The notes below the pieces were generated by a model, which made no database searches, had not been told where the DNA came from, and saw only the letters and a program-made list of their open reading frames with translations. From Candidatus Aminicenantes bacterium (lineage in GTDB: Bacteria; Acidobacteriota; Aminicenantia; S016-38): a stretch of 64,000 nucleotides of DNA. The position numbers were made by a program, and so were the translations under genes. Below, piece after piece: positions 950 to 62,568 of this stretch; position 1 is the stretch's first letter; the number at the start of each line of letters is the position of its first letter. The stretch lies in assembly GCA_026987025.1 (NCBI GenBank), contig JALSNJ010000040.1, positions 16,451 to 80,450 of the forward strand, read 5' to 3'.

Positions 950-957
950 GCTTAAAA

Positions 958-1029: not shown

Positions 1030-1062
1030 AATGGCTTATTTTATAAGAAACTCCTTCCTTTG

Positions 1063-1428
1063 TCAACCGACGGTCCGGGCCATTTCCTTGGCGCTTTTTT
1101 CCATCATAACCTTGGCCAGCCCCACATTTCCTTCCCTTGGTATGGCGGCCACCAGTATGTAGGGGGTTTCGGGGACGCTGTATATGAAGAAAACGGCCTT
1201 ACCGGATATAACCGAGAGGTTTTTGAAACCTCCGACCTCGGAGGGAAGATATGAGAGGGCTTTGGCTATTTCCCTGTATATAAAGGAATAAACCCTGGCT
1301 GCCTTTTCCGGGTCGTGGCCCGGAAGAAGGGTAACCACCGCCTCCTCCCTTTCCTTTTCAAAATCGTAAATTCCCACGGCCACGCCCTGGGGGATCTTTT
1401 TTATAAGCTGGGCAGCTATGTCCTGCAT
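1063..1428 (-). CDS. Roadblock/LC7 (MglB-like) domain protein
   Basis: 121 aa. The C-terminal half (GGFKNLSVISGKAVFFIYSVPETPYILVAAIPREGNVGLAKVMMEKSAKEM) fits the roadblock/LC7 profile. It is the last gene of the H-NOX operon. Confidence 0.65.
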   Translation of the reverse strand: MQDIAAQLIKKIPQGVAVGIYDFEKEREEAVVTLLPGHDPEKAARVYSFIYREIAKALSYLPSEVGGFKNLSVISGKAVFFIYSVPETPYILVAAIPREGNVGLAKVMMEKSAKEMARTVG

Positions 1429-1439: not shown

Positions 1440-1808
1440 TTAAAGGGCCACTATCAGTTCCTTGGCCTTCTCCATGGAAGTTTTTATAAGGCCTATGGGG
1501 GTGGACTTGTCAAAGAAACCCACCATGCCGAAGGGGGCCTCCTTAAGGCTCAGGATAACTATCTGGGCGTTCTCGGTTTCTAAAATGGCCTCCTCTCAAA
1601 CTCCCCGTAGGCGGCCTTGGAGCGAATTTCTATTCCCTTCCTTATGGCCCTTATTATGTCCTGACTTACCGCGGTGGCCACTTCCGGGTCCAGCCCCTCC
1701 AATTTGGAGAGGGAATCCACCAAAAGACCCGCCTCGTCAAACACCCCCCCGCAATAAGTGTTGGGAGCTCTTTACATCACCCTTTCTCGGATTTCTTTCA
1801 CATCCAGT
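1440..1808 (-). pseudogene. Frameshifted Roadblock/LC7 paralog
   Basis: Three minus-strand frames together encode one roadblock-like protein:
- frame 0: ...GDVKSSQHLLRGGV*
- frame 2: VFDEAGLLVDSLSKLEGLDPEVATAVSQDIIRAIRKGIEIRSKAAYGEFERRPF*
- frame 0 again: EEAILETENAQIVILSLKEAPFGMVGFFDKSTPIGLIKTSMEKAKELIVAL*
The frame changes sit at a 7-C homopolymer (1744..1750) and near 1596. Behind the RBS only a short GTG mini-ORF (VKEIRERVM*) and an ATG-TGA pair are present, so there is no intact start. Confidence 0.6.
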
Positions 1809-1817: not shown

Positions 1818-2342
1818 TTATTCAGGGAAGGTTATTCTAACCTCATCCTCTGATATTTGCTCCACCTGCAGGGGGGTTTTGTAGAACTTGCCTACCCCCT
1901 TGGCCAGCCCCATAAATATGGCCATGAGCTTTCGGGGGGACTTGTACTTCATTATAAGCACATTGGGGGCTTCCCAGCGGTACTCAAACCTGGGGGGATG
2001 GGCATTGGGAATGTTCTGGGTGGCCTTTCGGTGAATTTCGTCCATTTTGAGTAGCAGTTCCCTGGCACTGGTCACCCCCCGGTAATAGGGCTTATAGACC
2101 TTGGGCATGTAAACCGTCACCCAGTATTCGCCGAAGGCGTCGGCCACCTCCTCCGGGGACAGGTTCAGGGTTCTGGATATGGACTCCACCACCGCCAGAA
2201 CGGTCTCGTCCGGCACATCTTTCCGGACGGAGAAGGTGGTGGTGCGGGGAAGGCCGGCGTTTTCCAGAACATCCATCCATTTTTCCATGCCAAAGTTTTC
2301 CACTACCAGATCTTTGATGGCGTCAATGATCGCACCCTTCAC
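1818..2342 (-). CDS. hnoX: Stand-alone H-NOX (heme nitric oxide/oxygen binding) sensor domain protein
   Basis: 174 aa. It starts MKGAII like H-NOX domains. The proximal His context is MDEIH, followed by PPRF, a YKSPRK (Y-x-S-x-R heme-propionate) motif and GLAKGVGKFY. Overall it is collinear with Thermoanaerobacter H-NOX. Confidence 0.8.
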   Translation of the reverse strand: MKGAIIDAIKDLVVENFGMEKWMDVLENAGLPRTTTFSVRKDVPDETVLAVVESISRTLNLSPEEVADAFGEYWVTVYMPKVYKPYYRGVTSARELLLKMDEIHRKATQNIPNAHPPRFEYRWEAPNVLIMKYKSPRKLMAIFMGLAKGVGKFYKTPLQVEQISEDEVRITFPE

Positions 2343-2353: not shown

Positions 2354-3478
2354 TTAAATCTCTCCCAGCTCCTTCAGGGTTTCCAGGAAGGCAAGTTCGT
2401 ACTTCTTCATAATAACCCTGGCCAGCCCGAGATTCCCCTTTCTGGTCATGGCCACTCCCTGATAGTGCTTTTCCCCCAGCTGCCTCACTAAAATGTAGGC
2501 CCTATCGGTGGTTACCAGGATGTCCTCCGTCTCTCCGACGATTTCTGGCCCCCCTAGCAGTTCTAAGGCCTTGTTGTTCTGCTTTAGAACCTCAGAATAG
2601 GCGGCCGATGCCACCGTGACATCAAAATTGGGGTCCGGTGAATAGGTGGCAATAGCAAGGCCTGAGTCAAAATTGACTATAGAAGTTCCTATTAATTCCG
2701 GAATTTCCCCCGCGGCCTTTTCAAGTAGTTCTTGCAATGTTGACATTTTATCACCTCCTTTAATAATCACCTCCAATTCCTCCTCTTCCTTGGTTTTGTC
2801 CTCGTCCCTGTGCCTGGCGGCCTCCAGGACGAGGTGCATAATGCTTTCCCCTATCCTTCCCTCCTCATCATCCCTGTAGGGCCGGGAGGTAAATACCCCT
2901 CCCTCCCAGTTCATCATCTCCATAAAGGCGTCTATTCCCTTTAAATCCTCGGTTTTGGCCCACATAACCCTTCCATCCTTTATCCCCATCTCCCCCTTCA
3001 GTCCTATGGAATTTTCCACCGAAAGGGTCAGGTCCTTGTTGTAAAACGAGAGAAATTGCAGGATGTCCACCAGCTCCAGGTCGCTCAGGGAAACATCAAA
3101 TCCCTTAGTCTGGAAAATTTTGCCTATGATTCTAAGGAGCTGATTGAGGGCCACGGGCTTTTCCAGGTAAAGCAATGCCCCGGATTTTTTGGCCTTTTCC
3201 TTGAAGAAAGGGGAACCGTAGGCGGTGATGAGGATAACCCTGGTTTGGGGGAGGTTTTCCCTGATCCAGAGCAGAAGGTCAAATCCGTCCTTTCCGGGTA
3301 GTTTTATGTCGGAGATCACCAGGTCCACGGGATGCTTTTTTAAAAACTCCACCGCCTCTTCGTAGCTGTATGCCCCGTGGCATTCAAGCTTCTTGCTCAG
3401 GAATTCCATCATGGAAAGGGTTATGTTGACCTCGTCGTCAACAATGAGGATTTCGGGCTTTTTCTTTTTCTTGGCCAT
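2354..3478 (-). CDS. Response regulator with REC + DUF4388 (PATAN) + C-terminal Roadblock/LC7 domains
   Basis: 374 aa. The N-terminus (MAKKKKKPEILIVDDE...VISDIKLPGKDG) is a CheY-like receiver with a phospho-Asp context. The middle (GFDVSLSDLELVDILQFLSFYNKDLTLSVEN...GRVMWAK...GIDAFMEMMNWEGGVFT) matches DUF4388. The C-terminus (GTSIVNFDSGLAIATY...AMTRKGNLGLARVIMKKYE) is roadblock-like. Confidence 0.75.
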   Translation of the reverse strand: MAKKKKKPEILIVDDEVNITLSMMEFLSKKLECHGAYSYEEAVEFLKKHPVDLVISDIKLPGKDGFDLLLWIRENLPQTRVILITAYGSPFFKEKAKKSGALLYLEKPVALNQLLRIIGKIFQTKGFDVSLSDLELVDILQFLSFYNKDLTLSVENSIGLKGEMGIKDGRVMWAKTEDLKGIDAFMEMMNWEGGVFTSRPYRDDEEGRIGESIMHLVLEAARHRDEDKTKEEEELEVIIKGGDKMSTLQELLEKAAGEIPELIGTSIVNFDSGLAIATYSPDPNFDVTVASAAYSEVLKQNNKALELLGGPEIVGETEDILVTTDRAYILVRQLGEKHYQGVAMTRKGNLGLARVIMKKYELAFLETLKELGEI

Positions 3479-3490
3479 CGTTTTATTTTG

Positions 3491-3506
3491 AGCAAAAAAT
3501 GTGCCA
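3491..3506 (-). promoter_or_regulatory. Sigma-54 (RpoN) -24/-12 promoter for the REC-DUF4388-Roadblock/H-NOX operon
   Basis: The minus strand reads TGGCACattttTTGCT, an 11/11 match to TGGCAC-N5-TTGCW. The GC of the -12 element is 12 nt upstream of the ATG at 3478, which predicts a leaderless transcript. Confidence 0.6.
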
Positions 3507-3561
3507 GAAAATACCCCATTTAAAACTTGATGTTTTCCAGGGGGGTGGTAAAATTTTTTCT

Positions 3562-4467
3562 ATGAAGGAAGCATTGCCCGTAAACCTGGTAGGTTTTTTT
3601 TGCGAATGGGAAGATAGGTTGACAGTTTTGCCGAAGGATTTCTCGGGGCTATTTCTTCCCAAAATGCAGGAGATATTGAAGGAAGTGGAGGGTGGAAAGA
3701 AAATTGTCAGCATAGGGAGCTGCAATTGGGAGGTTTTTGACTTCAGCAGCGAGGTGGGGGAGGGAGGGATTCATAGGCTTTTGATTTTCGTTCCATTAAA
3801 CCGGGAGATGACACACATATACTCCATGATAATTCACGAACTCAAGAACCCCATAGCAGCCATAAGGGCCATGGTTCAGGTTATGGAAACGGGCATAAAG
3901 GAGGGTGTTCAGGAAAGGGAGAAACTCCTTCAATACACCTCCCTGATCCTGGAGGAAATAGACAGGATGAACCGGATTCTTTCTTCCATAATGAAGCTGG
4001 CGAAGCCTAAAACAAGGTTTAGATTTAAATTTGACCTGGTGGAGGAGACGAAAAAGGCCATGGCCACATGGGGTCAGGAATTCAAGTCGCAGGGTATAAA
4101 GATGACCCTGATTACCAACCGGGAGAAAATATACTTCTTGGGAAATCCCGACGAGATCCATCAGATAATAAACAATCTTCTGAGGAACTCTAAAGAAGCC
4201 CTGGAGGGGGTAAAGGAACCCAGGGTGATTGTGGATATAACGGAGACACGGGGGGAAATTATAATGCGGGTAAAAGACAACGGCCGGGGCATGGAGCCGG
4301 AGGTTATGGAAAAGATTAAAACCTCCTTTTATTCCTCCAAACCCCAGGGCCTTGGGCTGGGTCTCTTCGTGGTAAAGAGCATCGTGGGAATGTACGGCGG
4401 AGAACTTAACATAAAATCGGAGGAAGGAAAGGGCTGCGAGATAACCCTGAGGTTTCCCAGAAGATGA
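3562..4467 (+). CDS. Cytoplasmic sensor histidine kinase (HisKA + HATPase_c)
   Basis: The H-box is HELKNPIAAIRAMVQV. The N-box and G-boxes are NLLRNSKEAL, DNGRGM and GLGLGLFVVKSIV. There are no TM segments. The start is ambiguous: the ORF track begins at 3499, but that ATG lies inside the divergent sigma-54 motif, so I prefer the ATG at 3562. Confidence 0.75.
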   Translation: MKEALPVNLVGFFCEWEDRLTVLPKDFSGLFLPKMQEILKEVEGGKKIVSIGSCNWEVFDFSSEVGEGGIHRLLIFVPLNREMTHIYSMIIHELKNPIAAIRAMVQVMETGIKEGVQEREKLLQYTSLILEEIDRMNRILSSIMKLAKPKTRFRFKFDLVEETKKAMATWGQEFKSQGIKMTLITNREKIYFLGNPDEIHQIINNLLRNSKEALEGVKEPRVIVDITETRGEIIMRVKDNGRGMEPEVMEKIKTSFYSSKPQGLGLGLFVVKSIVGMYGGELNIKSEEGKGCEITLRFPRR

Positions 4468-5699
4468 GCGACATCCTCATAGTGGAGGACGACCTGAACT
4501 TTGCGAAGGCGCTGGAGGATTATCTTTCAGCCAGGGGGTTTGAGGTGAAGGTAGTCCTCAACGGGAAAAAGGCCCTGGAAGTTGCCCGCAGCGAAACCCC
4601 TGAGATAGTTCTCCTGGACCTTTTTCTTCCGGATTATAGCGGTCTAGATCTGATACCAGAGCTTTCCTTAACCTCCTCCGTGGTGGTAATAACCGGGGCC
4701 GGGGAGGTGAGACTGGCGGTGGAGGCCATGAGAAGGGGAGCCTACGACTTCCTGGTTAAACCGGTAGATCTGGAGGCCTTAGCCCTGAAACTGGAAAGAT
4801 TTTTTCCGGTCAGGGTCGTGCACGGCTTAATTGGCAATTCCCCTGCCATGAGGAGGGTGGTAGAGGAGGCGAAATTGGCCTCCCGGGGGAGGGCCAGCGT
4901 GCTTATCCTGGGGGAGACAGGGGTGGGAAAGGAGGAGGTGGCCAGGGCAATATACCGTCTCTCAGGCAGAAGGGGAAAGTTCGTGGCGGTAAACGCTTCG
5001 GCCCTTCCTGAGCCCCTTTTTGAGTCGGAGCTTTTCGGCCACAGAAGGGGGGCCTTCACCGGAGCCACCTACGACAAAAAGGGCCTGCTGGAAGAGGCCC
5101 AGGGAGGGGTGTTCTACCTGGACGAAATTACGGAAATGCCCCTTCACCTTCAGGCCAAGCTCCTGAGGGTTCTGGAAACCAGAACTTTGAGAAGGTTGGG
5201 GGAGACCCGGGACAGGGAGGTGGAATTTAAATTTATCGCCTCATCCAATTTGAAAATGGAGGAATTGAAGGAAAGGCTCAGGGAGGACCTCTTTTACAGG
5301 ATTTCCACCTTTATAATTGAAATCCCCCCCCTCAGGGAGAGGAAGGAGGACATAATCCCTCTGGCTAAGCACTTCATAAGGGAATTCGGAAGGGAAAAGG
5401 GAATTTTCGGGATAAGCCCCCCGGCGGAAGAAATTCTCCTGAAGTATTCCTGGCCCGGCAATGTAAGGGAGCTTAGGAACGAGATAGAAAGGGCCTGCTT
5501 AGTGGCCAGCGGAAGGCAACTGGAACCCTCCCATTTCAGCGAGAGGATCAGGGGGGAGCACAGGATTCTTACCCTGGAAGAGATGGAAAGGGAATACATA
5601 AAAAAGGTTCTCCAGATCTGTGGGGGCAACAAAAGCAGGGCCGCTAAGCTTCTGGGAATTTCCCGTCCCACCCTGCGGAAAAAACTGAGCGAGGGCTGA
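4464..5699 (+). CDS. Sigma-54-dependent response regulator (NtrC family: REC + AAA+ sigma-54 activator + Fis-type HTH)
   Basis: 411 aa with a REC domain (VLLDLFLPD), a Walker A (GETGVGKE), ESELFGH, the GAFTGA loop and a C-terminal HTH (RAAKLLGISRPTLRKKL). It overlaps the HK stop by 4 bp. Confidence 0.9.
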   Translation: MSDILIVEDDLNFAKALEDYLSARGFEVKVVLNGKKALEVARSETPEIVLLDLFLPDYSGLDLIPELSLTSSVVVITGAGEVRLAVEAMRRGAYDFLVKPVDLEALALKLERFFPVRVVHGLIGNSPAMRRVVEEAKLASRGRASVLILGETGVGKEEVARAIYRLSGRRGKFVAVNASALPEPLFESELFGHRRGAFTGATYDKKGLLEEAQGGVFYLDEITEMPLHLQAKLLRVLETRTLRRLGETRDREVEFKFIASSNLKMEELKERLREDLFYRISTFIIEIPPLRERKEDIIPLAKHFIREFGREKGIFGISPPAEEILLKYSWPGNVRELRNEIERACLVASGRQLEPSHFSERIRGEHRILTLEEMEREYIKKVLQICGGNKSRAAKLLGISRPTLRKKLSEG

Positions 5700-11123: not shown

Positions 11124-12352
11124 TCTAAGGCAGGCCTGAGGAAGAGAAGAAAGGTCCTGTAAAGTATGTGCAGGTCCATGTAGAAGTTTCGGTGTTTTAT
11201 GTAATAGAGGTCGTATTCCAGTTTTCTCAAATGTTGCTGGAAATCATCCCCGGCGTACCCAAAGTGAATTTGAGCCCATCCCGTAACCCCTGGCCTTACC
11301 CTTGTCCTTAAGGGGTAAAGAGGTAGCTTCCTTTCCAGGACCCGGCTAATTTCCGGCCTTTCCGGCCTTGGACCCACTAAGGACATATCTCCCTTTATTA
11401 CATTTAATAATTGCGGAACTTCATCCAGGTGAAGCTTCCTTATGATCTTTCCTATTCGGGTTATCCTGGGGTCGTCCTTCTTGGCGAAAACGGGCTTTCC
11501 TTCCGGCTCTGCGTTGGGAACCATGGTCCTGAACTTTATAAGTCTAAAGGGGCGGCCGTCCTTTCCGAGCCTCTCTTGCAAATAGAAGATGGGTCCCGGG
11601 CTTTCAATCTGGTGGATTAAGGCCAAAAGAAGGGCGGGGGGGAATAGAAGGAGAAGAGCTATAAGGGCTGCGGGGACTTCCAGGAGCCTTTTTATCCCCT
11701 CGTAGGAGTTTTTCTCAACAGCCAGCACCTCTTCAGCTACCCTTTTTTCCGGTTTGAGTTCTAAGGGAACGAGTTTCCCCAGATTTTCCACAAACTCTTC
11801 CAGAGAAAGGACGAGGACTCCCTCCCTGGCCAGAAGCTTGCTGAGGGTTTCCTTGTCCAAACTTCCATTTACCACCACCAGGTCGGAATGGGGAATTTCC
11901 CGGGCAGGTTTCAGTAGAAGGGGGTACTTCTTCTTTATTTCCTCCAGGGGCGTCTCAGCCTTCCAGAGTACCCTGGGAATTTTTGGAGTTTTCCTGGTAA
12001 GGGAATAGAGAAGAGAAAGGAGGAAAAAACTGGCATAGGTGAGCCTTCCCAGATTATGGGAGAAAAAAAGGAAGGACTCTGCAAGGTAAGCCCCGATGAG
12101 GGAAAGGGAAAGTTTTCCCATCCTGGACAGAGCAGAAAATTCCCTTTCCAGAAGGAAGGAGGGAGAATTGGAGGTGAAACCTTCCTGGGCTTCGCAAAGG
12201 ATCAGAAAGACCGCCGAGAGCACCAGAAGGTTGGGATAATATTCCAGAAGAAGGGCCCTCCACCTGCTGAGGGAACCGGCATAGGGAAAAAGGGAAAACG
12301 ATGCCAGCGAAAGGACCACGAGGGAATCCTTGAACCAGCGTTTAAACTTCAT
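11120..12352 (-). CDS. Polyprenyl-phosphate hexose-1-phosphate transferase (WbaP/EPS-initiating 'bacterial sugar transferase')
   Basis: The C-terminus reads RPFRLIKFRTM...DDPRITRIGKIIRKLHLDEVPQLLNVIKGDMSLVGPRPERPE. The N-terminus has multiple TM helices. Confidence 0.85.
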   Translation of the reverse strand: MKFKRWFKDSLVVLSLASFSLFPYAGSLSRWRALLLEYYPNLLVLSAVFLILCEAQEGFTSNSPSFLLEREFSALSRMGKLSLSLIGAYLAESFLFFSHNLGRLTYASFFLLSLLYSLTRKTPKIPRVLWKAETPLEEIKKKYPLLLKPAREIPHSDLVVVNGSLDKETLSKLLAREGVLVLSLEEFVENLGKLVPLELKPEKRVAEEVLAVEKNSYEGIKRLLEVPAALIALLLLFPPALLLALIHQIESPGPIFYLQERLGKDGRPFRLIKFRTMVPNAEPEGKPVFAKKDDPRITRIGKIIRKLHLDEVPQLLNVIKGDMSLVGPRPERPEISRVLERKLPLYPLRTRVRPGVTGWAQIHFGYAGDDFQQHLRKLEYDLYYIKHRNFYMDLHILYRTFLLFLRPALD

Positions 12353-13352
12353 CTTTCAGGGCATTCCAGGCGAGGGTTAAGGCCAAGAAGAAAATGAAGG
12401 ATATGAAGAAGGAATAAAGGATAATCCTTAAACTTGCCCTATTGTAGGCCAGGGGAAGGTTTATTGAGAATATTCTTAACAAAAGACAGTCCCTTTCCAG
12501 TTCCCCCATGACCCTTGAGAGGGCATGGGAAGGAAAGAGGGCTTTAGACTTTTCCTCTGCTTCTTCACAGGAGGACATATTTTGAATTTCGCCGTAAAAT
12601 TCAGAATACCTGGAGAAGTAATCCACCTCCTTATTAAGAACGGCAAGGTCGGTTTCCAGCTCGTGGATGATGATGGAGGATGCCCGGGCCTGAAGGCTGG
12701 GGGAAAGATAGGCGAGAAAGTACGGCTCTACTGAGGTTGCCAGGTTGGGTCCCTCTTTGTTTCCGTATTTTCTTCCAACCCCTTCCAGGAAGATTATTTT
12801 CCCCTTTAGCTCCTGAATTTTCCTTTCTATCCTCGTTCTAAGATAGAGTAGATTCTGGATGTGCACCCTGGAATAATAGGATTTTATTTTAAGCAGGGAA
12901 AACAATTGATTCGTCAACCTTGAAGTCAGGGAATCGATAAAGACCCTTGACTCCTTCTCCGGACCATAAATCCTGAGAGTTTTTAAGTAAAGGGTAGGAG
13001 ATACAACCCTGGTGGGGAGAAACTTGTAATTGGCGGGAAGGGCATATTCTGCGGACACCCGCAGCCCGTGCTCAAAGCGGGAGAGAAGGCCCGATATATT
13101 TTCCTTCCTCAGGAGGGAGTTTTCCTCCAGAGTGTAGGAAACCGAATCCTTCTTCATGGGGTAGTACCGGGTGAAATAAAGGAAGGGGATGTTGTAGGAA
13201 ATTTCCCTTCCCTCCCTCAGCTCCGGGGGAATTTCAATGTAAATCCCGGGGGAGGCCTGGCTGTTGTGATAAAAAACCCAGAGGGCAGATGCAAGGCTGA
13301 CCAAGAAAGCCCCTATCAGGGGATAAACCAATATCAATATTCTCTTTTTCAC
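12342..13352 (-). CDS. Membrane protein with N- and C-terminal TM helices, possibly a Wzz-like polysaccharide co-polymerase
   Basis: 336 aa with TM helices at both ends and a long, coiled-coil-like central region. It sits between two EPS-initiating transferases. I see no diagnostic motif. Confidence 0.35.
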   Translation of the reverse strand: MKKRILILVYPLIGAFLVSLASALWVFYHNSQASPGIYIEIPPELREGREISYNIPFLYFTRYYPMKKDSVSYTLEENSLLRKENISGLLSRFEHGLRVSAEYALPANYKFLPTRVVSPTLYLKTLRIYGPEKESRVFIDSLTSRLTNQLFSLLKIKSYYSRVHIQNLLYLRTRIERKIQELKGKIIFLEGVGRKYGNKEGPNLATSVEPYFLAYLSPSLQARASSIIIHELETDLAVLNKEVDYFSRYSEFYGEIQNMSSCEEAEEKSKALFPSHALSRVMGELERDCLLLRIFSINLPLAYNRASLRIILYSFFISFIFFLALTLAWNALKDEV

Positions 13353-13389: not shown

Positions 13390-14751
13390 TCAATAGGCAC
13401 CCTCCCTTTCCAGAACTGCCTTTGCGGTTTTTACAAGGATTACAAAATCCAGCCAGAGGGACCAATTTCTTACATAAAATTCGTCCAGGGCCAGCCTCAC
13501 TTCAAAGGGAAGGGTGTTTCTTCCCCTTATTTGCCATAGCCCTGTGATTCCGGGTTTTACCCTGAAGATGATTTTCCTGTAACCTCCCATATCTCCCCTC
13601 TCCTTGGGCAGATAGGGTCTTGGTCCCACCAAAGACATCTCCCCCTTTAAAACATTGAAAAGCTGGGGAAGTTCATCAAGGCTCCATTTCCTCAAGAAGC
13701 GTCCCACCCTGGTAACCCTGGGGTCGTTCTTGAGTTTTTTGTACTTTTCCCACTCCTCCCTTAGCTCAGGATTTTTTCTCAAAAGCCTCTGAAGCACCCT
13801 GTCTGCATCGGCCCTCATGCTGCGGAATTTGAAAATATAGAAGGGCCTTTCCCCCATTCCCAGCCTTCTTTGCCTGTAAATAATGGGACCCTTTGAGTCC
13901 AGCTTAATGGCTATGGCAATGGCAAGAAGCAGCGGGGAGAGGAAAAGCAAAAGCAGGGAGGAAAGAAGAAGGTCCATGGCCCTTTTTATAAGGAGGTTTT
14001 CCTTTTTGTAAAGCTTGTGGTAGGGGGAAAGGGTCATATATATCCCTATATTTTTCAACTTACCGTAGGCCAGGGAGATTTTATGCACTTCCGGTATTAT
14101 GTTTATGCTGGCCATTCCCTCCAGCCTCAGCACTAAGGACCGGAGGGTTGAGGGAGCAAAGCAGGAGGAAAGGATGAAAACTTCCCTTATACCGTCTTCC
14201 CGGATCTTTCTCTCTATCCTGTCAGTATCCTCATAGACCTTCTTAACCCTGTAGCCGGCGTACCATTCCCTTTGAAGCTCCATGGCCAGGTCCCGGGCTT
14301 CCTTTTCCCTGCCCACGATGGCCACAGGCCGGAGACCGATGCCCAGGGAAAATAAAATTTTCTTCAGAATAAACCTCAGGGCTGGAACGGCCACCGCAGT
14401 TAGAAACACGGTGGTGAGGAGCATAACCCGTGAAAGCATGAACTCCTTTTTTCCTATGTATGCAATGGAGAGGGTTAAAAATCCGGAGACTATGTCCGTG
14501 GTCCATATTCCCTTGAGTTCCTCCCAGAATCCCCTGTGCTCGTAAAGCTCCTCCTCCCATCCTACAGCTATCCACAAAAGGATAAAAATAAGCAACAGGG
14601 GTATGTATGTGGAGAGGGGTTCCAGATGAGCTATCCGGAGAGAATTGAAGAACTCCGGAATTATCCTCTCCCTTAAAAAGTAAGAGAAGAAAAACGAAAA
14701 GGAAATGGCCAGGGCATCCCCGGCTAAAAGTAACGCCCAGAAAAATCTCAT
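13390..14751 (-). CDS. Second polyprenyl glycosylphosphotransferase (exopolysaccharide biosynthesis type)
   Basis: RPFYIFKFRSMRADAD...DPRVTRVGRFLRKWSLDELPQLFNVLKGEMSLVGPRP, preceded by a multi-TM N-terminal domain. Confidence 0.85.
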   Translation of the reverse strand: MRFFWALLLAGDALAISFSFFFSYFLRERIIPEFFNSLRIAHLEPLSTYIPLLLIFILLWIAVGWEEELYEHRGFWEELKGIWTTDIVSGFLTLSIAYIGKKEFMLSRVMLLTTVFLTAVAVPALRFILKKILFSLGIGLRPVAIVGREKEARDLAMELQREWYAGYRVKKVYEDTDRIERKIREDGIREVFILSSCFAPSTLRSLVLRLEGMASINIIPEVHKISLAYGKLKNIGIYMTLSPYHKLYKKENLLIKRAMDLLLSSLLLLFLSPLLLAIAIAIKLDSKGPIIYRQRRLGMGERPFYIFKFRSMRADADRVLQRLLRKNPELREEWEKYKKLKNDPRVTRVGRFLRKWSLDELPQLFNVLKGEMSLVGPRPYLPKERGDMGGYRKIIFRVKPGITGLWQIRGRNTLPFEVRLALDEFYVRNWSLWLDFVILVKTAKAVLEREGAY

Positions 14752-14812
14752 CAGAGTATATTATAAGCGATTGTGGGAATATGTGTTAGAATTACCCCTT
14801 GAGGCTGCAAAA

Positions 14813-31245: not shown

Positions 31246-31715
31246 CTTCCCAGAAGTTTCTTTATTTCGTCGTGGTAAAGGAAAAGATTGGGAACAGAAC
31301 TTCCCGGGGAGGTTGCTATGGGGTATCCCCCTATTTCCTTAAGTTCCATTAATCCGTCCACATGGGGGCTTATGGCATCCAGGGTTTTCAGCAGCCCCTT
31401 AACCTTTTCCTTGGCCTTATTACTATCGCTGGCCACCACGAATATTATGCCGTGCCTTTCCACCGGTTCGCCCTTTATGTAGTATCCTACGAAGGAAGAA
31501 AAGAGGAATTCCCCCTCCGGGGGTTTCCCCACCTCTATTCTCCTTCCGTCGGCGTAATTTATCTCTGTGAGGGAGTCAAAGTGGAAATTTTCCCCTTCCA
31601 TTTCCTTCAGGACGGCCAGAAGGGCTTCCCGTGGTGAAGCTGCCACCCTGAAGAGGTATCGGTGTTTTTCGTCAAAATGGGTGTCCATTCCGAGGCTGAT
31701 GAGGTAAAGCTTCAT
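31242..31715 (-). CDS. Hypothetical protein, 157 aa, no recognisable family
   Basis: It is translationally coupled by 4-bp overlaps to the radical SAM gene upstream and the YHS gene downstream. I recognise no motif. Codon usage looks coding. Confidence 0.5.
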   Translation of the reverse strand: MKLYLISLGMDTHFDEKHRYLFRVAASPREALLAVLKEMEGENFHFDSLTEINYADGRRIEVGKPPEGEFLFSSFVGYYIKGEPVERHGIIFVVASDSNKAKEKVKGLLKTLDAISPHVDGLMELKEIGGYPIATSPGSSVPNLFLYHDEIKKLLGR

Positions 31716-32668
31716 TTTCCCCTCCCGAAGACCCTGGCTATGAAAACCCTTCCCCTGTATTCCACCTCCTTGAGTTTTCCCTCCTGCTTTAGCCTCTCCA
31801 CCAGGTCCCAGCCTGCTCCGGTTTTTTTCAGCAGTTCCTCCACAGCCTCCCTTTCCATGGGGTGGACCGCGGCGGTGGCCAATATGTCCCTTTCCGCATC
31901 TCCGGTGAAACCAAAACTTCCTGGTTCAGAACCCGTCAGGAGAACGGGGCGAAGGCCGTGGGCTTTAAAGATAAGGTAAGCCCTGTGGAGGATTTCTTCA
32001 TCGGCTCCCTGGACCCATTTTTCCGCCGGGGGTCTGGTGGGCACCATTATGTAGGAAGTCTCAGGCCTTATCCTCCGGAGAAATTCGGCGATTTTTTCCA
32101 GCTCCTCCCCGGAGTCGTTAAGGCCTTTTATCAGCATGGTTTCGCTTACCAAACGGTTTTTAAACTCCCGGGAGAACCTTTCCAGCCCCTCCAGTATTTT
32201 TTCCAGGGAAAGCCGGCCGTGGGGTCTGTCCACCCGCCTGAAAACCTGAGGAGATAGGGCATCCACCTTAACGCAAACCCAATCTGCCGGAGCCAGATCC
32301 CTTCTCACCTCCTCCATCCAGAGGAGGGAGGAATTGGTGATGACGGCTATTTTTATTCCCAGGCTCCTGAGAAGCCTTATTTCTTCCCCCAGGTTTACAT
32401 CCAAGGTGGGTTCTCCATCGGGGACGAAGCTAAGGTAATCTATATTTATACCCCGGGAGTTTACCTCCCTTACCCTTTCCTTTACCCTTTCGTAAACCTC
32501 CTCAGGCTCATAAAAGGCCCTTCTGTGAACGGACATCTCCACGGTATTTCCTATCTGACAGTAAACGCAGGAATAGGTGCAGATCTTGGGAGGGATATTG
32601 TTTATACCTAAGCTCATCCCCAGACGCCTGGATGGCACAGGGCCGAAGGCTATGGATGTGGTTTCCAT
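31712..32668 (-). CDS. Radical SAM enzyme of unknown specificity (no SPASM/twitch extension)
   Basis: 318 aa. An N-terminal CTYSCVYCQIG (C-x3-C-x2-C) motif is present. Downstream, a Gly-rich motif (SFVPDGEPTL) and ITNSS fit a radical SAM TIM-barrel fold. There is no Cys-rich C-terminus. Confidence 0.75.
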   Translation of the reverse strand: METTSIAFGPVPSRRLGMSLGINNIPPKICTYSCVYCQIGNTVEMSVHRRAFYEPEEVYERVKERVREVNSRGINIDYLSFVPDGEPTLDVNLGEEIRLLRSLGIKIAVITNSSLLWMEEVRRDLAPADWVCVKVDALSPQVFRRVDRPHGRLSLEKILEGLERFSREFKNRLVSETMLIKGLNDSGEELEKIAEFLRRIRPETSYIMVPTRPPAEKWVQGADEEILHRAYLIFKAHGLRPVLLTGSEPGSFGFTGDAERDILATAAVHPMEREAVEELLKKTGAGWDLVERLKQEGKLKEVEYRGRVFIARVFGRGK

Positions 32669-32684: not shown

Positions 32685-33434
32685 TCATTTTGTTCTCGGT
32701 CCCACAGGATGAAGTATAAGGGCGGCGGAGGTGGTGCCGTTCAGTCCCAGAAGCTCGTTGATGTAGGTATCGTAAAAGGCCGCTATCTCTACAGTGGAAA
32801 GTCCAAAGGCCTCACACGCCAGGTAAATATTCTGGGAGATGGCCCCGGCCTCCATATAGGCATACCGGTAGCCCCTGTCCAGGTATTTCCATGTGACCCT
32901 CTGAAAAAAGGAGACCAGCACCAATAATAGAGGAGCCCTGGCCATCATGTCCCCCTGGGGAGAAAAACGAAGAACCTGCCTGCGGAAGCTCTCCCTCTTC
33001 AATAGGCCCACGGAGTTTTCCTCAGGAAGGAAAAGATAAAGGCCCTTTTCCAGCCCTTCCACCTGCTCGGCGAAGAAGTATATGAAAATGGGATAGAGGG
33101 CTCCGGCGGAGGGGGCTGTTCTGAGCTTAATTCCCCATTTTTCGTCGCTTACCCCGTCGGCGGCGTTGAGTATCCCGGAGAGGACCTCCAGTTTAATCCC
33201 GGAACGGAAAAACCTCCTCCTTGACCTCCTTTTGTATAACGCCTCTTGCAGGGAGATGGAAGGGAGCTTTGGGGAGGGGAGTTTAATCTTTTTTATAAAT
33301 TTCCATTCCATTTCAGGCCTCTTCTGCCATTTGACCGGTCCTAAGTACCCCCTGGGTGAGTAGGAAGTCAGATAATGGAACCTGGGCCCTGGAAGGTTCA
33401 AGATTAGAATCAGGGCCAGGTTCCAGAACATCAC
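32685..33434 (-). CDS. SagB-type dehydrogenase / nitroreductase-family (FMN) protein
   Basis: RRSRRRF...PSAGALYPIFIYF...GLYLF...WKYLDRGYRYAYMEAGAISQNIYLACEAFGL...AAFYD match the SagB/ThcOx-type nitroreductase domain. The start could instead be the internal MEWKFIKK at 33308. Confidence 0.7.
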   Translation of the reverse strand: MMFWNLALILILNLPGPRFHYLTSYSPRGYLGPVKWQKRPEMEWKFIKKIKLPSPKLPSISLQEALYKRRSRRRFFRSGIKLEVLSGILNAADGVSDEKWGIKLRTAPSAGALYPIFIYFFAEQVEGLEKGLYLFLPEENSVGLLKRESFRRQVLRFSPQGDMMARAPLLLVLVSFFQRVTWKYLDRGYRYAYMEAGAISQNIYLACEAFGLSTVEIAAFYDTYINELLGLNGTTSAALILHPVGPRTK

Positions 33435-33964
33435 TCAACGAAGACCTGGGAGTCTCCGGTGGATAATACCCTGACCCCTGGCACGAGGGCAAACCTGAGG
33501 TAAACCTGGTAGAGGCTGGGCTGGTCCAGGCTCCATCTCCAGTATCTGAAACCGGTGGATACAGAAAGGTCCAAGAAGAACCTATGGCGGGTGAAAAGCC
33601 TGGCCCTCTTGCTGGAAAGGGAAATGTCAAAGAGCTTCTCCTCACCGCTCTGAAAATAACCAATGGAAGTTCCCCCCAGGAAGAGAACCAGAAGCCTGCG
33701 GGAGGCCCTTTCTGTGTAGGGGGAGGTGAAGCTTATCCAGCGAAGACCAAGACCTATCCCGGCGAAGGTCAGTCCAGCTCCGAAGCCGCTTTCGTTAAGG
33801 AAGCTAAATTCTACCTCTGGAAGCCCCTTGTCCGAGAAACTCCCCTGGGTGTGGAAGAAGGAGAGTCCCAGGCCCAGGTCTAAAAAACCCTCAATATCCT
33901 CGCCCAAAGCTGGGGCAAGGATGAACAGGGCCGCCAGCAAAAACGCCGGTATTTTTCCTCTCAT
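33431..33964 (-). CDS. Small secreted protein with a signal peptide, likely an outer-membrane beta-barrel
   Basis: 177 aa. A signal peptide (MRGKIPAFLLAALFILAPALG) is followed by an alternating hydrophobic, Gly/aromatic-rich pattern typical of small OM barrels. Confidence 0.45.
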   Translation of the reverse strand: MRGKIPAFLLAALFILAPALGEDIEGFLDLGLGLSFFHTQGSFSDKGLPEVEFSFLNESGFGAGLTFAGIGLGLRWISFTSPYTERASRRLLVLFLGGTSIGYFQSGEEKLFDISLSSKRARLFTRHRFFLDLSVSTGFRYWRWSLDQPSLYQVYLRFALVPGVRVLSTGDSQVFVE

Positions 33965-49158: not shown

Positions 49159-49228
49159 TTATTATCTGCGGCCTCTGGTTGTCAATAGAATTTTTTCGTA
49201 GGATAATTAAGAAACAATGGAGGTTACC

Positions 49229-50005
49229 ATGATAGAGGAAAGGAAAATAACCGAAGCCATAATAAGGAGCTACACGGAGAAACTTCTCCAGCACCTGGAA
49301 AACGATGTCCTGATAGCCGGAAGCGGCCCCTCAGGGCTGGTGGCGGCCTATTATCTGGCGAAGCAGGGGTTAAAGGTGGCGATTCTTGAGAAGAAGCTCA
49401 GCATAGGCGGAGGGATATGGGGAGGCGGCATGATGTTCAATTCCATAGTGGTACAGAGGGAGGGGAAGGAGGTTATGGACGAGTTCGGGATGCCCTCCCG
49501 GGAGTTCGCTCCTGGGTACTTTGTGGCCGATGCGGTTCTTGTGGCCAGTCTTTTGGCGTCCAAGGCCCTTCTGGCCGGGGCTGTGATCTTCAACGGTATT
49601 CTCTTGGAGGATGTGATACTCAAGGAGGGCAGGGTAGGGGGGGCTGTTATCAACTGGTCAGCGGTGCAGGTGGCAGGACTTCATGTGGACCCCCTGGCCC
49701 TTCATTCCAGGTTTCTCATTGACGCCACCGGCCACGATGCCGAGGTGGTGAAGGTTCTCCAGGAGAAGAGCAGGGTAAAGCTGAAAACCCCCTCCGGCAA
49801 AATGGAAGGGGAGAGGTCCATGTGGGCCGACAAGGCAGAAGGCTTCGTGGCCTCCAACACTAAAGAGGTGTTTCCAGGACTTATAGTGGCAGGGATGGCC
49901 GCCAACGCCACCTTCGGAGGTCCAAGAATGGGGCCTATCTTCGGCGGCATGTTTCTCTCGGGAAAAAGGGCCGCCGAAATTATCCTTGAAGAAATCAGGG
50001 GGTGA
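49229..50005 (+). CDS. Thi4-family thiazole synthase (archaeal/bacterial sulfide-dependent type)
   Basis: [19 protein letters not shown] as the FAD/NAD-binding GxGxxG motif, and [24 protein letters not shown] sits 5 nt upstream of the ATG at 49229; the ORF track starts at 49217. Confidence 0.75.
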
Positions 50006-53972: not shown

Positions 53973-55826
53973 TCATTTTCCCCGGACCCATATGGCTCTG
54001 GAGGACAGGTTCCCTGCGAAGTCCCGGGCCTGAACCTTTAGAAGGTGTTTACCCTTGGGAATCTTTATCCTGCTGAAGGCAAGCCCCGCATCGTAGTCGT
54101 ATTCAGGGATAAATCTTTTCTTCCCTATGGAAATGTAGATTTCCTCCGGATTCACTCCGCTTCCCCCGTCGGTTATCTTCACGAATATTTTGCCTTTTTT
54201 TATACGAATCCTGCCTATTCTGGGAGGAGCGATGTCCTTAGCCACCACGAAGACGCCCAGAAGCTTGGTTTTTGCCCTCAGGCGGTTTTCCATCAGGGTG
54301 GGCTTAAGTAAGGACCATCCCCTGGAGAACTTCCTGTAAATCCCCACGGTGCTGTCAAATTTTCCCTCAAATTTCATTTCCACCGTGGCGGGATTTTTTA
54401 AAAGAGCTTCCCTGGGGGTTATGAGGTAGAAAGGGGAGAGGGGCAGGAGTTCCCGGGGGAGCTTCTGGGGGGGGATCCTGGAAACCCTCAGGTTCAGGCC
54501 CGGAAAGCTTCCCGGGAGGGCTTTGATTTTTATTTCAGAGGCAGAGTTTGCTATGCGAAAATGGAATCCCTGTACTGTTAGCTCTTCTTCCCCGGGGCTT
54601 AGCACCGAAAAGCATTCCCCCTGACAAAACATGGGGGAAGCAATGGTTCCCCTGGGCAATACTACCCTTTCCCATCCTATGTGGGCTTCTATTCTCCTGG
54701 GGCGGAGCTTCTCCCCTGACTTCAGAGCTTTTCCCCTGTAAAGGATTATCCAGGGGGAAGAGAAACCCCCTGCCCTGACCTTGAAGCGTATATACCCCTG
54801 CGAAGGAATTCTCCCCTTAACCCTTTCCCATCCCTTTACTCCCCATTTATGGGGGCAGCAAATCCCTTTCAGGGAGAAGGGAGAAGGCCAGTGGCGGAGA
54901 AGAAGTTGCACCCGGGAGGAGTTTCCCCGTATGTTCTGGCCGATAACCCTCAGGGTGTGCTCTCCCTTCTCAATACAAAGGGGAGGGGAGGAGAAGGGCG
55001 GAATCACATAATACGGACTTTTGGGGGAGGATAGGGCTAAATTATAGAACCACCCTGCGGTGTGGTTCAGAGAAAACTGAAATTCGTCTCCCCTCAGCTC
55101 AAAAACCTTTTTCCCGTCAAAGTAGGCCTGCAAACGGTAAATCCCGCACCTTCCCTTGCATTTCTCGTAGCCTCGGAGGAAAAGCCTGAAGCAACCGTGT
55201 ACCGGTATTTCTCTCCTTTCCGGAAGCCCGCCGTAAAACCTGGTGGGGCTGAGGCCCACAAAGCTTCCGGGGGAAGCAACTTCAAGGATGTAGGAGCGAA
55301 AAACCACCGGACCTGTGCTGGTAGGGAGGAATTTCAGAGGGTTCAGGGGACGGGTTTCCCCTTTCCTTATCTCAAAATGAAGGTGTGGGCCCCCTGCCCC
55401 CATGGAGCCACTGTAGCCTATGATCTGGCCTCTTTTTACCTTTATGGGTTTTTCCAGGTAATAATTGCCTATATATTTTCTCCCGATTTTTTTCCCCAGG
55501 CTTCTTATAAGGTCCTCCAGGCCAAGCCGCCGGTTTTCAAACCTCAAAAGATGGCCGTATACCGTGACATATCCTCCGGGATGCCTTATGTAAAGGGCCC
55601 TTCCGAAGCCGTACCAGTGGTAAAAAATCCTGAAAATCTCTCCTGAGGCCGCTGCCCTCACGGGAAGCCCTGTCCTTCTGTAGGTGCTGAGGTCAACCCC
55701 GCTGTGAAAATGGGTGGTTCTGTATTCGTAGAAGGTGGAGGTCAGGGCGGTAAAGGGCTTCAGGGGCCATATAAAACCCTGGGCCTTGAGCAAATAGACG
55801 GCCAGGAGGAAGGAAATTCTTTTCAC
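53973..55826 (-). CDS. Secreted M23-family metallopeptidase with a long (~430 aa) uncharacterised C-terminal extension
   Basis: A signal peptide is followed by HSGVDL...GRALYIRHPGGYVTVYGHL...GPHLHFE, the M23 HxxxD / HxH motifs. Confidence 0.75.
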   Translation of the reverse strand: MKRISFLLAVYLLKAQGFIWPLKPFTALTSTFYEYRTTHFHSGVDLSTYRRTGLPVRAAASGEIFRIFYHWYGFGRALYIRHPGGYVTVYGHLLRFENRRLGLEDLIRSLGKKIGRKYIGNYYLEKPIKVKRGQIIGYSGSMGAGGPHLHFEIRKGETRPLNPLKFLPTSTGPVVFRSYILEVASPGSFVGLSPTRFYGGLPERREIPVHGCFRLFLRGYEKCKGRCGIYRLQAYFDGKKVFELRGDEFQFSLNHTAGWFYNLALSSPKSPYYVIPPFSSPPLCIEKGEHTLRVIGQNIRGNSSRVQLLLRHWPSPFSLKGICCPHKWGVKGWERVKGRIPSQGYIRFKVRAGGFSSPWIILYRGKALKSGEKLRPRRIEAHIGWERVVLPRGTIASPMFCQGECFSVLSPGEEELTVQGFHFRIANSASEIKIKALPGSFPGLNLRVSRIPPQKLPRELLPLSPFYLITPREALLKNPATVEMKFEGKFDSTVGIYRKFSRGWSLLKPTLMENRLRAKTKLLGVFVVAKDIAPPRIGRIRIKKGKIFVKITDGGSGVNPEEIYISIGKKRFIPEYDYDAGLAFSRIKIPKGKHLLKVQARDFAGNLSSRAIWVRGK

Positions 55827-55886: not shown

Positions 55887-56342
55887 ATGATTAATCTTTC
55901 CCTTTACTTGAAGAAGGACCTAATTAAATTGGGGGAGGAGCTTTCCAGCAAGGAGGAAGTCCTCCGCAGGATAGCGGAGCTTCTTTCCGGGGGAGGCTAT
56001 GTGGAGGACCTGGAGAAGGCCTTCTCCGAGCTCAAGAGGAGGGAGGAAATTCAATCCACGGGCATCGGGGGAGGTATAGCCGTGCCTCACCTGCTCTGCG
56101 ACATAGAGGAGCCCGTGGTGGGATTTATGACCCTGAAGGCCCCTGTAGAATTTGATGCCCTGGACGGAAAGCCGGTGGATGTGGTTTTCTTTACCGCTGC
56201 CCCCAATCCCAACCTTCACCTGAGAATGCTGGCCCGCCTGGCCAGGTTGGTTAAATCATCTGGGATAGTGGACAGGATAAGAAAGGCCGAAGGTCCCGAG
56301 GAGGCCTACGAGGCCTTTAAGCAGGAGGAGATAAGTCTGTGA
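55887..56342 (+). CDS. ptsN: PTS EIIA-type-2 (EIIA-Ntr / PtsN-like) protein
   Basis: 151 aa with the phosphorylatable His in STGIGGGIAVPH. Confidence 0.75.
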   Translation: MINLSLYLKKDLIKLGEELSSKEEVLRRIAELLSGGGYVEDLEKAFSELKRREEIQSTGIGGGIAVPHLLCDIEEPVVGFMTLKAPVEFDALDGKPVDVVFFTAAPNPNLHLRMLARLARLVKSSGIVDRIRKAEGPEEAYEAFKQEEISL

Positions 56343-56668: not shown

Positions 56669-56728
56669 TAACCTTTTCCCCTGAAATTCGTATAAAATTC
56701 TTTACCTTTCATAATGAAGGAGGCAGTT

Positions 56729-61132: not shown

Positions 61133-61606
61133 TTACTGCTTAGTCCTGGGTCCGCAGACAAGCTGACCGTTGGAGAAAATGATCTCCCGGTCAAACTCAG
61201 CGAGGGTGGTGGGAGGGTCGTAGAGGGTAAAGTTGGCTCCTATAGCGCAGTCACAGATGTCTCCGCAGCTGGCGTTCTTTCCAGGGGAGCCCACTATGTA
61301 GTCTCCTGGATCCGTGTTGTACTGATACTGAAAGGTGTGTCCCCAGGCATCAATAGTCTTCAGAGCCTGGATGTAGAAGCCGCTGTTCTGGGTAAGAACT
61401 GCCAGGTCAGTGGGGGGAGTGTTGTTGTCCAGCCTGTACTCCTCAATGGCCGTGGCGATGTTCCTCAGGTCGGCCATGGTGGATTTCTGTTTGGATTTCT
61501 GGATGGCCACCATAAGGTTGGGGATCAGAATGGCGGCCAGAATTCCGATAATGGCCACCACGATGAGCAACTCAATAAGGGTAAATCCCTTTTGTCTTTT
61601 TCTCAT
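61133..61606 (-). CDS. Type IV pilin / pseudopilin with prepilin N-terminal methylation domain
   Basis: MRKRQKGFTLIELLIVVAIIGILAAI is a class III signal with the G|FTLIE cleavage/methylation motif. 157 aa. Confidence 0.85.
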   Translation of the reverse strand: MRKRQKGFTLIELLIVVAIIGILAAILIPNLMVAIQKSKQKSTMADLRNIATAIEEYRLDNNTPPTDLAVLTQNSGFYIQALKTIDAWGHTFQYQYNTDPGDYIVGSPGKNASCGDICDCAIGANFTLYDPPTTLAEFDREIIFSNGQLVCGPRTKQ

Positions 61607-61644
61607 CGTTTACCTCCTTAAATTTTTATTTTTCAACTTATTAA

Positions 61645-61662
61645 CAGCAAGAAGCATGCCAG
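61645..61662 (-). promoter_or_regulatory. Sigma-54 promoter upstream of the pilin gene
   Basis: The minus strand reads cTGGCATgcttcTTGCTg (TGGCAT-N5-TTGCT). It lies ~40 nt upstream of the pilin ATG, and an AAGGAGG RBS sits in between. Confidence 0.6.
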
Positions 61663-61719
61663 ACAGAAGGGTTTTTACAGGCCCCATCTCCCTCGCGTTG
61701 ACAAAATTTTTAAGGGTTG

Positions 61720-61736
61720 TTGACAAAAATTGTCAA
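61720..61736. promoter_or_regulatory. Perfect 7-3-7 palindrome TTGACAA-AAA-TTGTCAA, plus a TTGACAAAA half-site 22 bp upstream (61698..61706). Candidate enhancer/operator for the pilin sigma-54 promoter.
   Basis: The palindrome is seen directly in the sequence and is centred ~75 bp upstream of the -24 element. It overlaps the GT9 stop codon. Confidence 0.4.
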
Positions 61737-62568
61737 ACAAGCTCCAACAGCCTTTCAAAAACCTCCTCCACCGAGATTTCCCTTATGTTTTCCTTCTTTA
61801 TAATGTTTTCCTTCTGGTTCCAGGGAGCTGTGAGCTCAGGGTGGGTGGCGCTTCCAAAGAGGGAGAGGACCGCTGTTCCCATGGCGTCCGCCAAGTGGAT
61901 GGGTCCGGTGTCGTTGCCGCAAACGATTCTTGCCCGGGCTAAGATCTCCTTCAATCCAAGTATATTTGGAGTGGAGTAGGGGAGGTTTCCGGAGGCCTCC
62001 TGAAGGAGCTCCTTTTCCTTCTCAGAACCCACATATAAAACCGAAAGTCTTTTCCCCCTTAGCCTTTCCCCCAATTCCCTGTAGTTTCTGGCAGGCCACC
62101 TTTTTGACGCCCTGGAGCCCCCAGGGATGAGGACCACATCTATTTCCTTTTCCTGAACCGGTGGCCTCAGGCGAACCTCGGCTTTTAGTTTTTTGCCCAT
62201 TAAATATTCCGCCAGCCTGAGGTACTGCAGAACCTGATGCTGTCTTTCCCATGGGACCCGGTCCGTAAGGAGCGCTCCCCTCATATCCTTAGGGTATCCC
62301 ACCCTTCTTTTAATTCCGCAAATCAGAAAGTTAAGGGCTGAGGAGAAGGAATTGGTGAAAAGAAGACCGATTTCCCGAACCGGGGCGCAGGAGAAAAGGT
62401 GGCGGAAAGGGTATATCCCCCGATAGAAACCCTCGCCGTAAAAAAGCTCACCGAGCCATGGTTTTCCCAGAAGGTAAACCTTAAATTCCTTAGACAGATT
62501 CCTGAGGGCCCCTACGGCCATGACAGAGTCGCCGAGCCAATTGGGCATTCTTACCAGAATCTCTTTCA
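61733..62568 (-). CDS. Family 9 glycosyltransferase (LPS heptosyltransferase, RfaF/WaaF-like)
   Basis: MKEILVRMPNWLGDSVMAVGALRNL is the canonical GT9 N-terminus, and the C-terminus reads GNDTGPIHLADAMGT. The ORF is open up to 62941, but that extension overlaps waaA and has no homology. Confidence 0.8.

Follow-up and report, generated by a model that had tools for sequence, protein, structure and literature searches.

How is the first gene of an operon translated when a sigma-54 promoter lies directly against its start codon? The question is raised by a 64,000-nt stretch of a Candidatus Aminicenantes genome (contig JALSNJ010000040.1; 'the window' hereafter), in which a compact 83-bp divergent region (3479-3561) separates a minus-strand operon for a response regulator of REC-PatA_N(DUF4388)-Roadblock-like architecture (the REC-PatA_N gene), an H-NOX haem sensor and Roadblock-like proteins from plus-strand genes for a histidine kinase (HK) and an enhancer-binding protein (EBP). 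An earlier note on this DNA had proposed that a sigma-54 promoter drives a leaderless transcript of the H-NOX/Roadblock operon. The comparative evidence (a conserved motif, short spacing and no Shine-Dalgarno [SD] sequence) supports that proposal, as a prediction: the promoter very probably yields a leaderless or near-leaderless mRNA.

On the minus strand, 3506..3491 reads TGGCACattttTTGCT, which matches the RpoN -24/-12 consensus TGGCAC-N5-TTGCW at 11 of 11 positions, as the earlier note had reported; this is the sole exact occurrence in the window, where chance alone would supply 0.05, and at least one match appeared in 4 of 100 dinucleotide shuffles. The GG and GC doublets lie one helical turn apart, as sigma-54 promoters require, and the motif is intergenic and in sense orientation to the REC-PatA_N gene. 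On the plus strand, TGGTAGG...TTGC at 3587-3603 also resembles a sigma-54 site but was rejected, its GG-to-GC spacing being 14 rather than the required 12.

Loss of the motif from orthologous loci had been named in advance as counter-evidence. Such loci were gathered from genome and metagenome collections and include close orthologues in three Aminicenantes metagenome-assembled genomes. All nine Aminicenantes-type loci (48-100% protein identity) kept the motif directly upstream of the gene, in the form TGGCAC, TGGCAT, TGGCAA or AGGCAT, then N5, then TTGCT or TTGCC, with GGCA and TTGC invariant. A second clade of ~13 Desulfobacterota-like loci, at about 36-52% identity, carries it too. By local tblastn, the motif accompanies a kinase-EBP pair adjoining the gene (divergent, co-oriented upstream, or downstream as in locus L109) and is absent from ~20 orthologues without an adjacent EBP. 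Conservation and this co-occurrence together point to the neighboring EBP as the activator of the promoter.

The same distribution bears on whether the motif might be a chance match or a non-promoter sequence, for example an upstream coding or regulatory part of the kinase gene, unrelated to RpoN. Such a view could appeal to the A/T-richness of the region, to the overlap of the motif with an alternative kinase start, correctly noticed earlier (ATG 3499-3501 on the plus strand covers the last base of the -24 hexamer), and to the finding that neither the window nor the related Aminicenantes loci encode an RpoN-box protein, although for a 64-kb window that absence is uninformative. However, conservation across both clades, taken with the shuffles, effectively refutes a chance origin, which becomes untenable given the strict co-occurrence of the motif with an adjacent GAFTGA-bearing EBP, and the alternative start is not itself conserved. 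We give this explanation almost no credence, and regard 3491..3507 as very likely a genuine sigma-54 promoter.

What the promoter implies depends on the start codon, which is beyond doubt, because, of in-frame ATG, GTG and TTG codons, ATG 3478-3476 alone is available after the upstream stop, and because beginning at the next one (M23/M24) would cost the receiver its invariant acidic (DD) pocket. Other start codons were accordingly rejected: none is available upstream after the stop, and none downstream before essential REC residues. The N-terminus so defined is conserved, as M-x-KKKKP-x-(V/I)LIVDDE. From the motif through the ATG the minus strand (3507-3476) reads CTGGCACATTTTTTGCTCAAAATAAAACGATG, and the interval from the C of the -12 element (3492) to the A of the ATG comprises 13 bases, tcaaaataaaacg, A/T-rich and without an SD-like purine-rich run or G-run. 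The earlier note was therefore right that no SD sequence intervenes; its count of 12 nt holds when taken from the final T of TTGCT, but from the C of the -12 GC the distance is 13 nt.

By the rule used for the sigma-54 ChIP-seq sites of E. coli, the transcription start site (TSS) was placed 19 bp past the center of the 17-nt motif, with C as -12; this gives +1 at 3480 and a predicted 5' untranslated region (UTR) of 2 nt. In Campylobacter jejuni, differential RNA sequencing (dRNA-seq) found the sigma-54 motif ending 8-13 nt upstream of mapped TSSs (PMC3847290), which means 10-15 nt between C and +1; the A of the ATG, 13 nt after C, falls in the middle of that range. Because the canonical +1 is 3480 and the empirical spread reaches A3478, we expect a 5' UTR of 0-3 nt, within the operational definition of leaderless as a UTR of <=5 nt (PMC12754779). 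The earlier placement of the TSS on the start codon thus survives insofar as A3478 lies inside the empirical range, whereas canonical numbering puts +1 two bases before the ATG. Minimum-free-energy folding of the predicted mRNA's first 62 nt left the AUG and the next ~30 nt (the first ~36 nt) essentially unpaired, the fold z-score of -1.65 being due to a downstream hairpin; an Rfam search of the region returned sub-threshold noise only, with no family matched.

The short spacing recurs among the orthologues. Counted from the -12 C up to the first base of the ATG, it is 13 nt in the window (and L001), in L083 and in L161 (62% identity), 14 nt in L003, L004 (where a second ATG lies at 11), L005 (68% identity) and L163 (48% identity), and 17 nt in L164/L165; thus eight of the nine Aminicenantes-type loci fall within 13-17 nt, and all nine start with ATG. 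Meanwhile the bases between motif and ATG have diverged (tcaaaataaaacg, tttaatagaaaacg, ttgtttaagggcg, tctttatgggtgaa and tattaaaaagtgct). Two of the orthologues had been called with a start extended into the TTG of the -12 element, an artefact typical of leaderless genes. A paralogous module on the same contig, just beyond position 1 of the window (L001 11150-13125), has the same layout, with an NtrC-type EBP followed by an 11/11 motif (TGGCACgaattTTGCT), 16 nt without an SD and the ATG of a second REC-PatA_N gene, and this arrangement is kept in L003 with different filler sequence. In L004 the paralogue is internal to an operon, without a promoter.

Sigma-54 transcripts usually have leaders, as the earlier note had also held, and three comparisons agree. 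In E. coli, predicted TSS and gene start are separated by no less than 18 nt at the 41 intergenic sense sigma-54 sites that precede protein-coding genes, the values ranging from 18 nt (rutA) up to several hundred; the sole value of 1 belongs to the small RNA (sRNA) gene glmY (PMC4591121 Table 1). In the Desulfobacterota-like orthologues the -12 C stands 23-31 nt from the ATG, with a GAGG-type SD 6-9 nt before it; the distance in L109 is 25 nt, with AGGGAGGAG. Finally, a second sigma-54 promoter in the window itself precedes a gene for a type IV pilin or pseudopilin-like protein (61133..61606, minus strand; 157 aa, N-terminal GFTLIELL) that has a canonical AAGGAGG SD. Because that promoter stands 40 nt upstream of its gene, with AAGGAGG between, this organism would seem to build normal SD leaders behind sigma-54 promoters, REC-PatA_N modules excepted.

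The Desulfobacterota-like modules (L105, L110/L008, L111, L113-L122) resemble the window in having a sigma-54 promoter, an adjacent HK-EBP pair and one conserved dyad upstream, theirs being the strongly conserved palindrome GTGGCGATATCCGCCAC at ~-107 and differing in sequence from the Aminicenantes dyad described below; they are unlike it in their longer spacing, their SD and their HK-EBP pair, which is co-oriented upstream. They also carry an A/T-rich block, AATAATATTATATAGTTATCATAA, between palindrome and promoter; palindrome and block, ~45-110 nt upstream of the promoter, together resemble an enhancer accompanied by a bending or IHF-like element.

On the other side of the divergent region, Pfam matches confirmed the sigma-54 EBP that had been placed 1 kb away as NtrC-type, and its GAFTGA loop is intact (residue 195). 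The kinase and EBP genes overlap by 4 nt. The kinase start chosen earlier, 3562, is conserved among the orthologues together with its -10 context, whereas a start at 3499 is not conserved and was rejected. A promoter scan placed a sigma-70-type promoter here whose extended -10, TGgTAAAAT, ends 7 nt before the kinase ATG, a geometry kept in L003, L004 and L083; the block GTGGTAAAATTTTTTC(C/T)ATG, in which the extended -10 stands exactly 7 nt before the ATG, occurs in four of the five aligned orthologues. Variants of the -10 among orthologues are TGnTAAAAT, TAATTT and TAAATT, with a TTG-containing -35 16-17 nt upstream. This arrangement predicts that the kinase-EBP mRNA, too, is leaderless.

The earlier note had pointed to 3510-3560 as the place to look for EBP sites, and a candidate was found at 3546-3562, a 17-bp dyad of consensus TGGTAAA-N3-TTTACCA. 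It has two mismatches in the window and is perfect in L004, L005 and L163; in eight of the nine Aminicenantes-type loci it occurs with 0-2 mismatches, its center 76-81 nt upstream of the ATG of the REC-PatA_N gene. Sites of the NtrC family have a 7-3-7 dyad format, and because this element matches that format we take it to be a probable EBP site. It overlaps the -10 box and the start codon of the kinase, the -10 block forming one arm of the dyad; in L161 the dyad is a separate copy from the kinase -10. The same dyad (TGGTAATTTTTTTATCA) stands at ~-117 in L109, which lacks a divergent kinase promoter and has the HK and EBP genes downstream of the operon. A weaker dyad-like element with five mismatches lies ~149 bp upstream of the first, inside the kinase gene (~3693-3709), and reads TGACAATTTTCTTTCCA in the orientation of the REC-PatA_N gene; its counterpart is TGATAATTTTTTTTCCA in L003 and L004, and its distance from the ATG of the REC-PatA_N gene is -225 in L003/L004, -228 in L164 and -210 in L005. 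It is conserved beyond what a kinase of 59-69% identity suggests, and could be a distal EBP site.

We consider it reasonably likely that these elements work together as one system, with a UTR of <=5 nt, SD-free translation and activation by the adjacent EBP. The sigma-54 promoter would hold RNA polymerase in a closed complex. The adjacent kinase would phosphorylate the NtrC-type EBP, and the H-NOX haem sensor encoded in the operon may modulate the kinase, a connection suggested by what is generally known of H-NOX/HnoK systems. The EBP would then bind the dyad at ~-74 and remodel the closed complex, transcription would start 0-3 nt from the AUG of the REC-PatA_N gene, and this first cistron would be translated leaderless or near-leaderless without an SD, while the H-NOX and Roadblock-like cistrons would use their ordinary SDs. 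In the other direction, the extended -10 sigma-70 promoter 7 nt from the kinase ATG would give a leaderless kinase-EBP mRNA. With the dyad lying across the kinase promoter and start codon, an EBP bound there could act as repressor of its own operon and activator of the H-NOX operon at once, a putative form of autoregulation.

Besides the lack of an rpoN gene in these sequences, several points weigh against this reading. The first is that the tight spacing is not universal, because in L162 ~72 nt of poly-T-containing sequence without an SD separate motif and ATG. One might suppose that the sigma-54 site is real but secondary, serving either as an additional, conditional promoter or as a roadblock, and that an upstream promoter in or near the 5' end of the kinase gene produces a long, A/U-rich, SD-less leader whose translation depends on S1. 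The SD-less gap of L162 would suit this, as would the A-rich caaaataaaacg, which could serve as an unstructured SD-less leader, and TATTTT or TAAAAT occurs just upstream of TGGCAC in L001, L003 and L004. However, a promoter scan of the minus strand from 3479 to 3700 gave no sigma-70-like promoter, and the TAAAAT-like hexamer is not kept in L083, L005, L161 or L163, that is, beyond the closest relatives; on these two grounds a minus-strand sigma-70 promoter with a longer leader was rejected as a candidate. A dominant upstream promoter would also leave unexplained both the 13-14 nt spacing conserved amid sequence turnover and the restriction of SD loss to the one lineage whose promoter lies against the ATG. 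We judge it unlikely.

L162 (1208-1295; motif TGGCAAtctttTTGCC) is the sole Aminicenantes-type orthologue with a distant ATG. Its insert, either a true insertion or an artefact of assembly in a contig of 3 kb, holds a run of 15 T and, beginning 12 nt past the -12 C, a 5-codon mini-ORF (open reading frame; ATGAAGTTAGCTTTTTAA).

The second point concerns the exact 5' end. Canonical numbering gives a UTR of 2-3 nt, and of 5-6 nt in the paralogue and L164 with their 16-17 nt spacings, rather than a 5'-terminal AUG. Extensions at the 5' end, even of a few bases, reportedly lower leaderless translation in E. coli (Krishnan et al. 2010, cited in PMC3616915). It could thus be that transcription starts 2-6 nt before the AUG, with +1 at 3480 rather than 3478, and that the mRNA is poorly translated, the first cistron being deliberately kept low or needing a special factor. 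We think this improbable as well: A3478 itself lies within the spread of sigma-54 TSSs, the gene must be expressed, given that it is conserved at full length, and UTRs of <=5 nt are counted as leaderless in any case (PMC12754779).

The remaining points are that the closest orthologues (83-85% identity) do not count as independent evidence, that a single dyad at -74 is nearer the promoter than most characterized enhancers, and that part of the conservation of the dyad could reflect its role in the kinase promoter, because it doubles as the -10 box. Even with these counted, the sigma-54-driven leaderless reading is the one we favor. The features of the locus and of the rest of the window are collected in Table 1.

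Table 1. Coordinates of predicted features in the window (position 1 is its first base)
Feature	Coordinates	Strand	Details
Roadblock-like 121-aa protein, last operon gene	1063..1428	-	SD-led
Roadblock-like gene, frameshifted near 1595	1443..1801	-	Two tblastn high-scoring segment pairs in different frames, abutting at 1595
H-NOX (HNOB) haem sensor, operon gene 2	1818..2342	-	Pfam HNOB, E = 4.5e-39; SD-led, GGAGG, taaggaggcgagctGTG
REC-PatA_N(DUF4388)-Roadblock-like response regulator, 374 aa, operon-first	2354..3478	-	Pfam Response_reg + DUF4388; ATG 3478-3476
Predicted TSS zone	3478..3481	-	From promoter geometry; canonical +1 = 3480; alternative purines 3481, 3479, 3478
Probable sigma-54 -24/-12 promoter	3491..3507	-	CTGGCACATTTTTTGCT; GG 3505-3504, GC 3493-3492; exact consensus match
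Sigma-70-type kinase-EBP promoter (predicted)	3527..3554	+	Promoter scan; -35 TTGATG, 16-nt spacer, extended -10 TGgTAAAAT
17-bp dyad, candidate EBP enhancer (upstream activating sequence)	3546..3562		TGGTAAAATTTTTTCTA; consensus TGGTAAA-N3-TTTACCA; ~-74 from predicted TSS
Cytoplasmic (soluble) histidine kinase	3562..4467	+	Pfam HisKA + HATPase_c; conserved start context
NtrC-type EBP	4464..5699	+	Pfam REC, Sigma54_activat (E = 7.5e-57), AAA lid, HTH_8
Leaderless candidate	12342..13352	-	TAAAAT, 6 nt
Leaderless candidate	13390..14751	-	TATAAT, 8 nt
Leaderless candidate	31712..32668	-	TATAAT, 8 nt
Leaderless candidate	33431..33964	-	TATCAT, 6 nt
Leaderless candidate	53973..55826	-	TAAAAT, 7 nt
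Leaderless candidate	55887..56342	+	TATCAT, 6 nt
Second sigma-54 promoter (predicted)	61646..61661	-	TGGCATgcttcTTGCT; 40 nt upstream of pilin-like gene

Leaderless initiation may extend to other genes of this genome. Among 97 ORFs from the window and related loci, each taken from its longest-ORF start, a strict GGAGG-type SD preceded 41, a share that rises if alternative in-frame starts in the window are allowed. TANNNT ending 5-8 nt upstream of the start was found for 10 of the genes without an SD and for none of those with one (background ~0.9 per position), a positional peak that rests on a small sample and is consistent in direction. A -10 element adjacent to the ORF is the signature of leaderless genes in other bacteria (PMC12340547, PMC4842269), and about seven operon-first genes of the window, the kinase included, lack an SD and carry instead a -10 hexamer whose end lies 6-9 nt from the start codon. 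Two others, 49217..50005 and 56714..58861, were rejected as leaderless, both having an SD-led ATG a few codons downstream. Two very short divergent intergenic regions look like back-to-back leaderless promoter pairs: 55827-55886, with TAAAAT 7 nt before GTG 55826 (minus strand) and TATCAT 6 nt before ATG 55887 (plus strand), and 14752-14770, with overlapping TATAATATA between ATG 14751 (minus strand) and a possible TTG 14771 (plus strand).

Homologues of the 374-aa first gene product are annotated Roadblock/LC7/MglB, and its C-terminal part is Roadblock/LC7-like. YKSPR in the H-NOX protein matches the haem-binding motif YxSxR. A single H-NOX gene is present in the window, L161 and L164; two in tandem, 75-86% identical to the window's single copy, occur in L003 (7128-8191), L004 (5994-7057) and L083 (5141-6707). 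The frameshift in the next gene reflects an apparent 1-nt deletion in ...gagtttgag-ag-gaggcc...; its counterpart is intact in L161 and L164 (119-120 aa), both independent assemblies of the window locus (L001, L002) call just a 47-aa ORF there, and the gene is either a pseudogene or the product of a shared assembly error. Directly downstream of the operon lie genes for tRNA-Val(TAC) and tRNA-Asp(GTC) (872-1030, minus strand), which have their own near-consensus sigma-70 promoter (within 872-1066; TTGACA, 17 nt, TAAAAT; 11/12) overlapping the 3' end of the 121-aa gene. At the pilin-like gene, a terminator-like hairpin follows at ~61100, and an antisense 189-aa ORF (61410..61979, plus strand) is probably spurious.

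The locus combines known kinds, a sigma-54 promoter and a leaderless mRNA, and is not a new kind of system. With NtrC-activated sigma-54 promoters such as E. coli glnAp2, pspA and zraP/zraSR it shares TGGCAC-N5-TTGCW and a neighboring REC-AAA+-HTH_8 GAFTGA activator with its kinase, and with NtrC sites and zraP-zraSR the upstream 7-3-7 dyad and the divergent layout. It differs from canonical systems in its predicted UTR of 0-3 nt without an SD, against at least 18 nt in E. coli, in having a single recognizable dyad at ~-74 where theirs lie at -100 to -150, and in a divergent partner promoter that is sigma-70-type rather than sigma-54. With the sigma-70 leaderless mRNAs of Deinococcus-Thermus, Actinobacteria and some alpha-proteobacteria it shares an AUG, no SD, a predicted unstructured 5' end and a fixed short distance to the promoter, but here the promoter would be a sigma-54 one, enhancer-dependent and with no basal activity. 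The leaderless genes of Bradyrhizobium have an extended -10 TGnTA upstream, comparable to the TGgTAAAAT 7 nt before the kinase ATG. H-NOX/HnoK-type operons, in which H-NOX neighbors a sensor-less histidine kinase with several response regulators, likewise find a parallel here, where a cytoplasmic kinase and at least two receiver proteins accompany H-NOX; the window differs in that one receiver belongs to a sigma-54 activator whose apparent target is the H-NOX operon itself. The arrangement described in the Myxococcus PexR paper, a sigma-70 leaderless EBP gene beside a sigma-54 target, is the mirror image of half this locus.

Each half of the pairing is well understood by itself, yet the pairing is unreported in the open literature that was searched. 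Among top-ranked open full-text articles no report of a sigma-54-dependent leaderless mRNA was found, although non-open journals may differ, and none is reported in papers on Sinorhizobium meliloti, Bradyrhizobium japonicum, Leptospira, Campylobacter, Myxococcus PexR, Methylosinus, Cupriavidus or Deinococcus-Thermus.

If the prediction is true, a sigma-54 holoenzyme can start essentially on a start codon, tight enhancer-dependent control does not preclude leaderless expression, and a lineage can turn a conserved regulon from SD-led to leaderless simply by deleting ~12-15 nt. Being compact, the divergent region of 83 bp, in which an enhancer candidate lies over the kinase promoter, makes a tractable in vitro template. 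Gene callers mis-start such genes, and leaderless starts are to be expected in Aminicenantes, a widespread uncultured group. We hold in even balance the broader proposal that Aminicenantes moved sigma-54 promoters against start codons at two or more paralogous signaling modules, giving leaderless mRNAs in which activation by the EBP would be the sole point of control, with no 5' UTR left for an SD, sRNA or riboswitch and the first codons doubling as the initially transcribed region, and that the ancestral short SD leader is still to be seen in the Desulfobacterota-like orthologues. These loci would then record a datable switch from SD-led to leaderless expression during which the sigma-54 promoter stayed the same.

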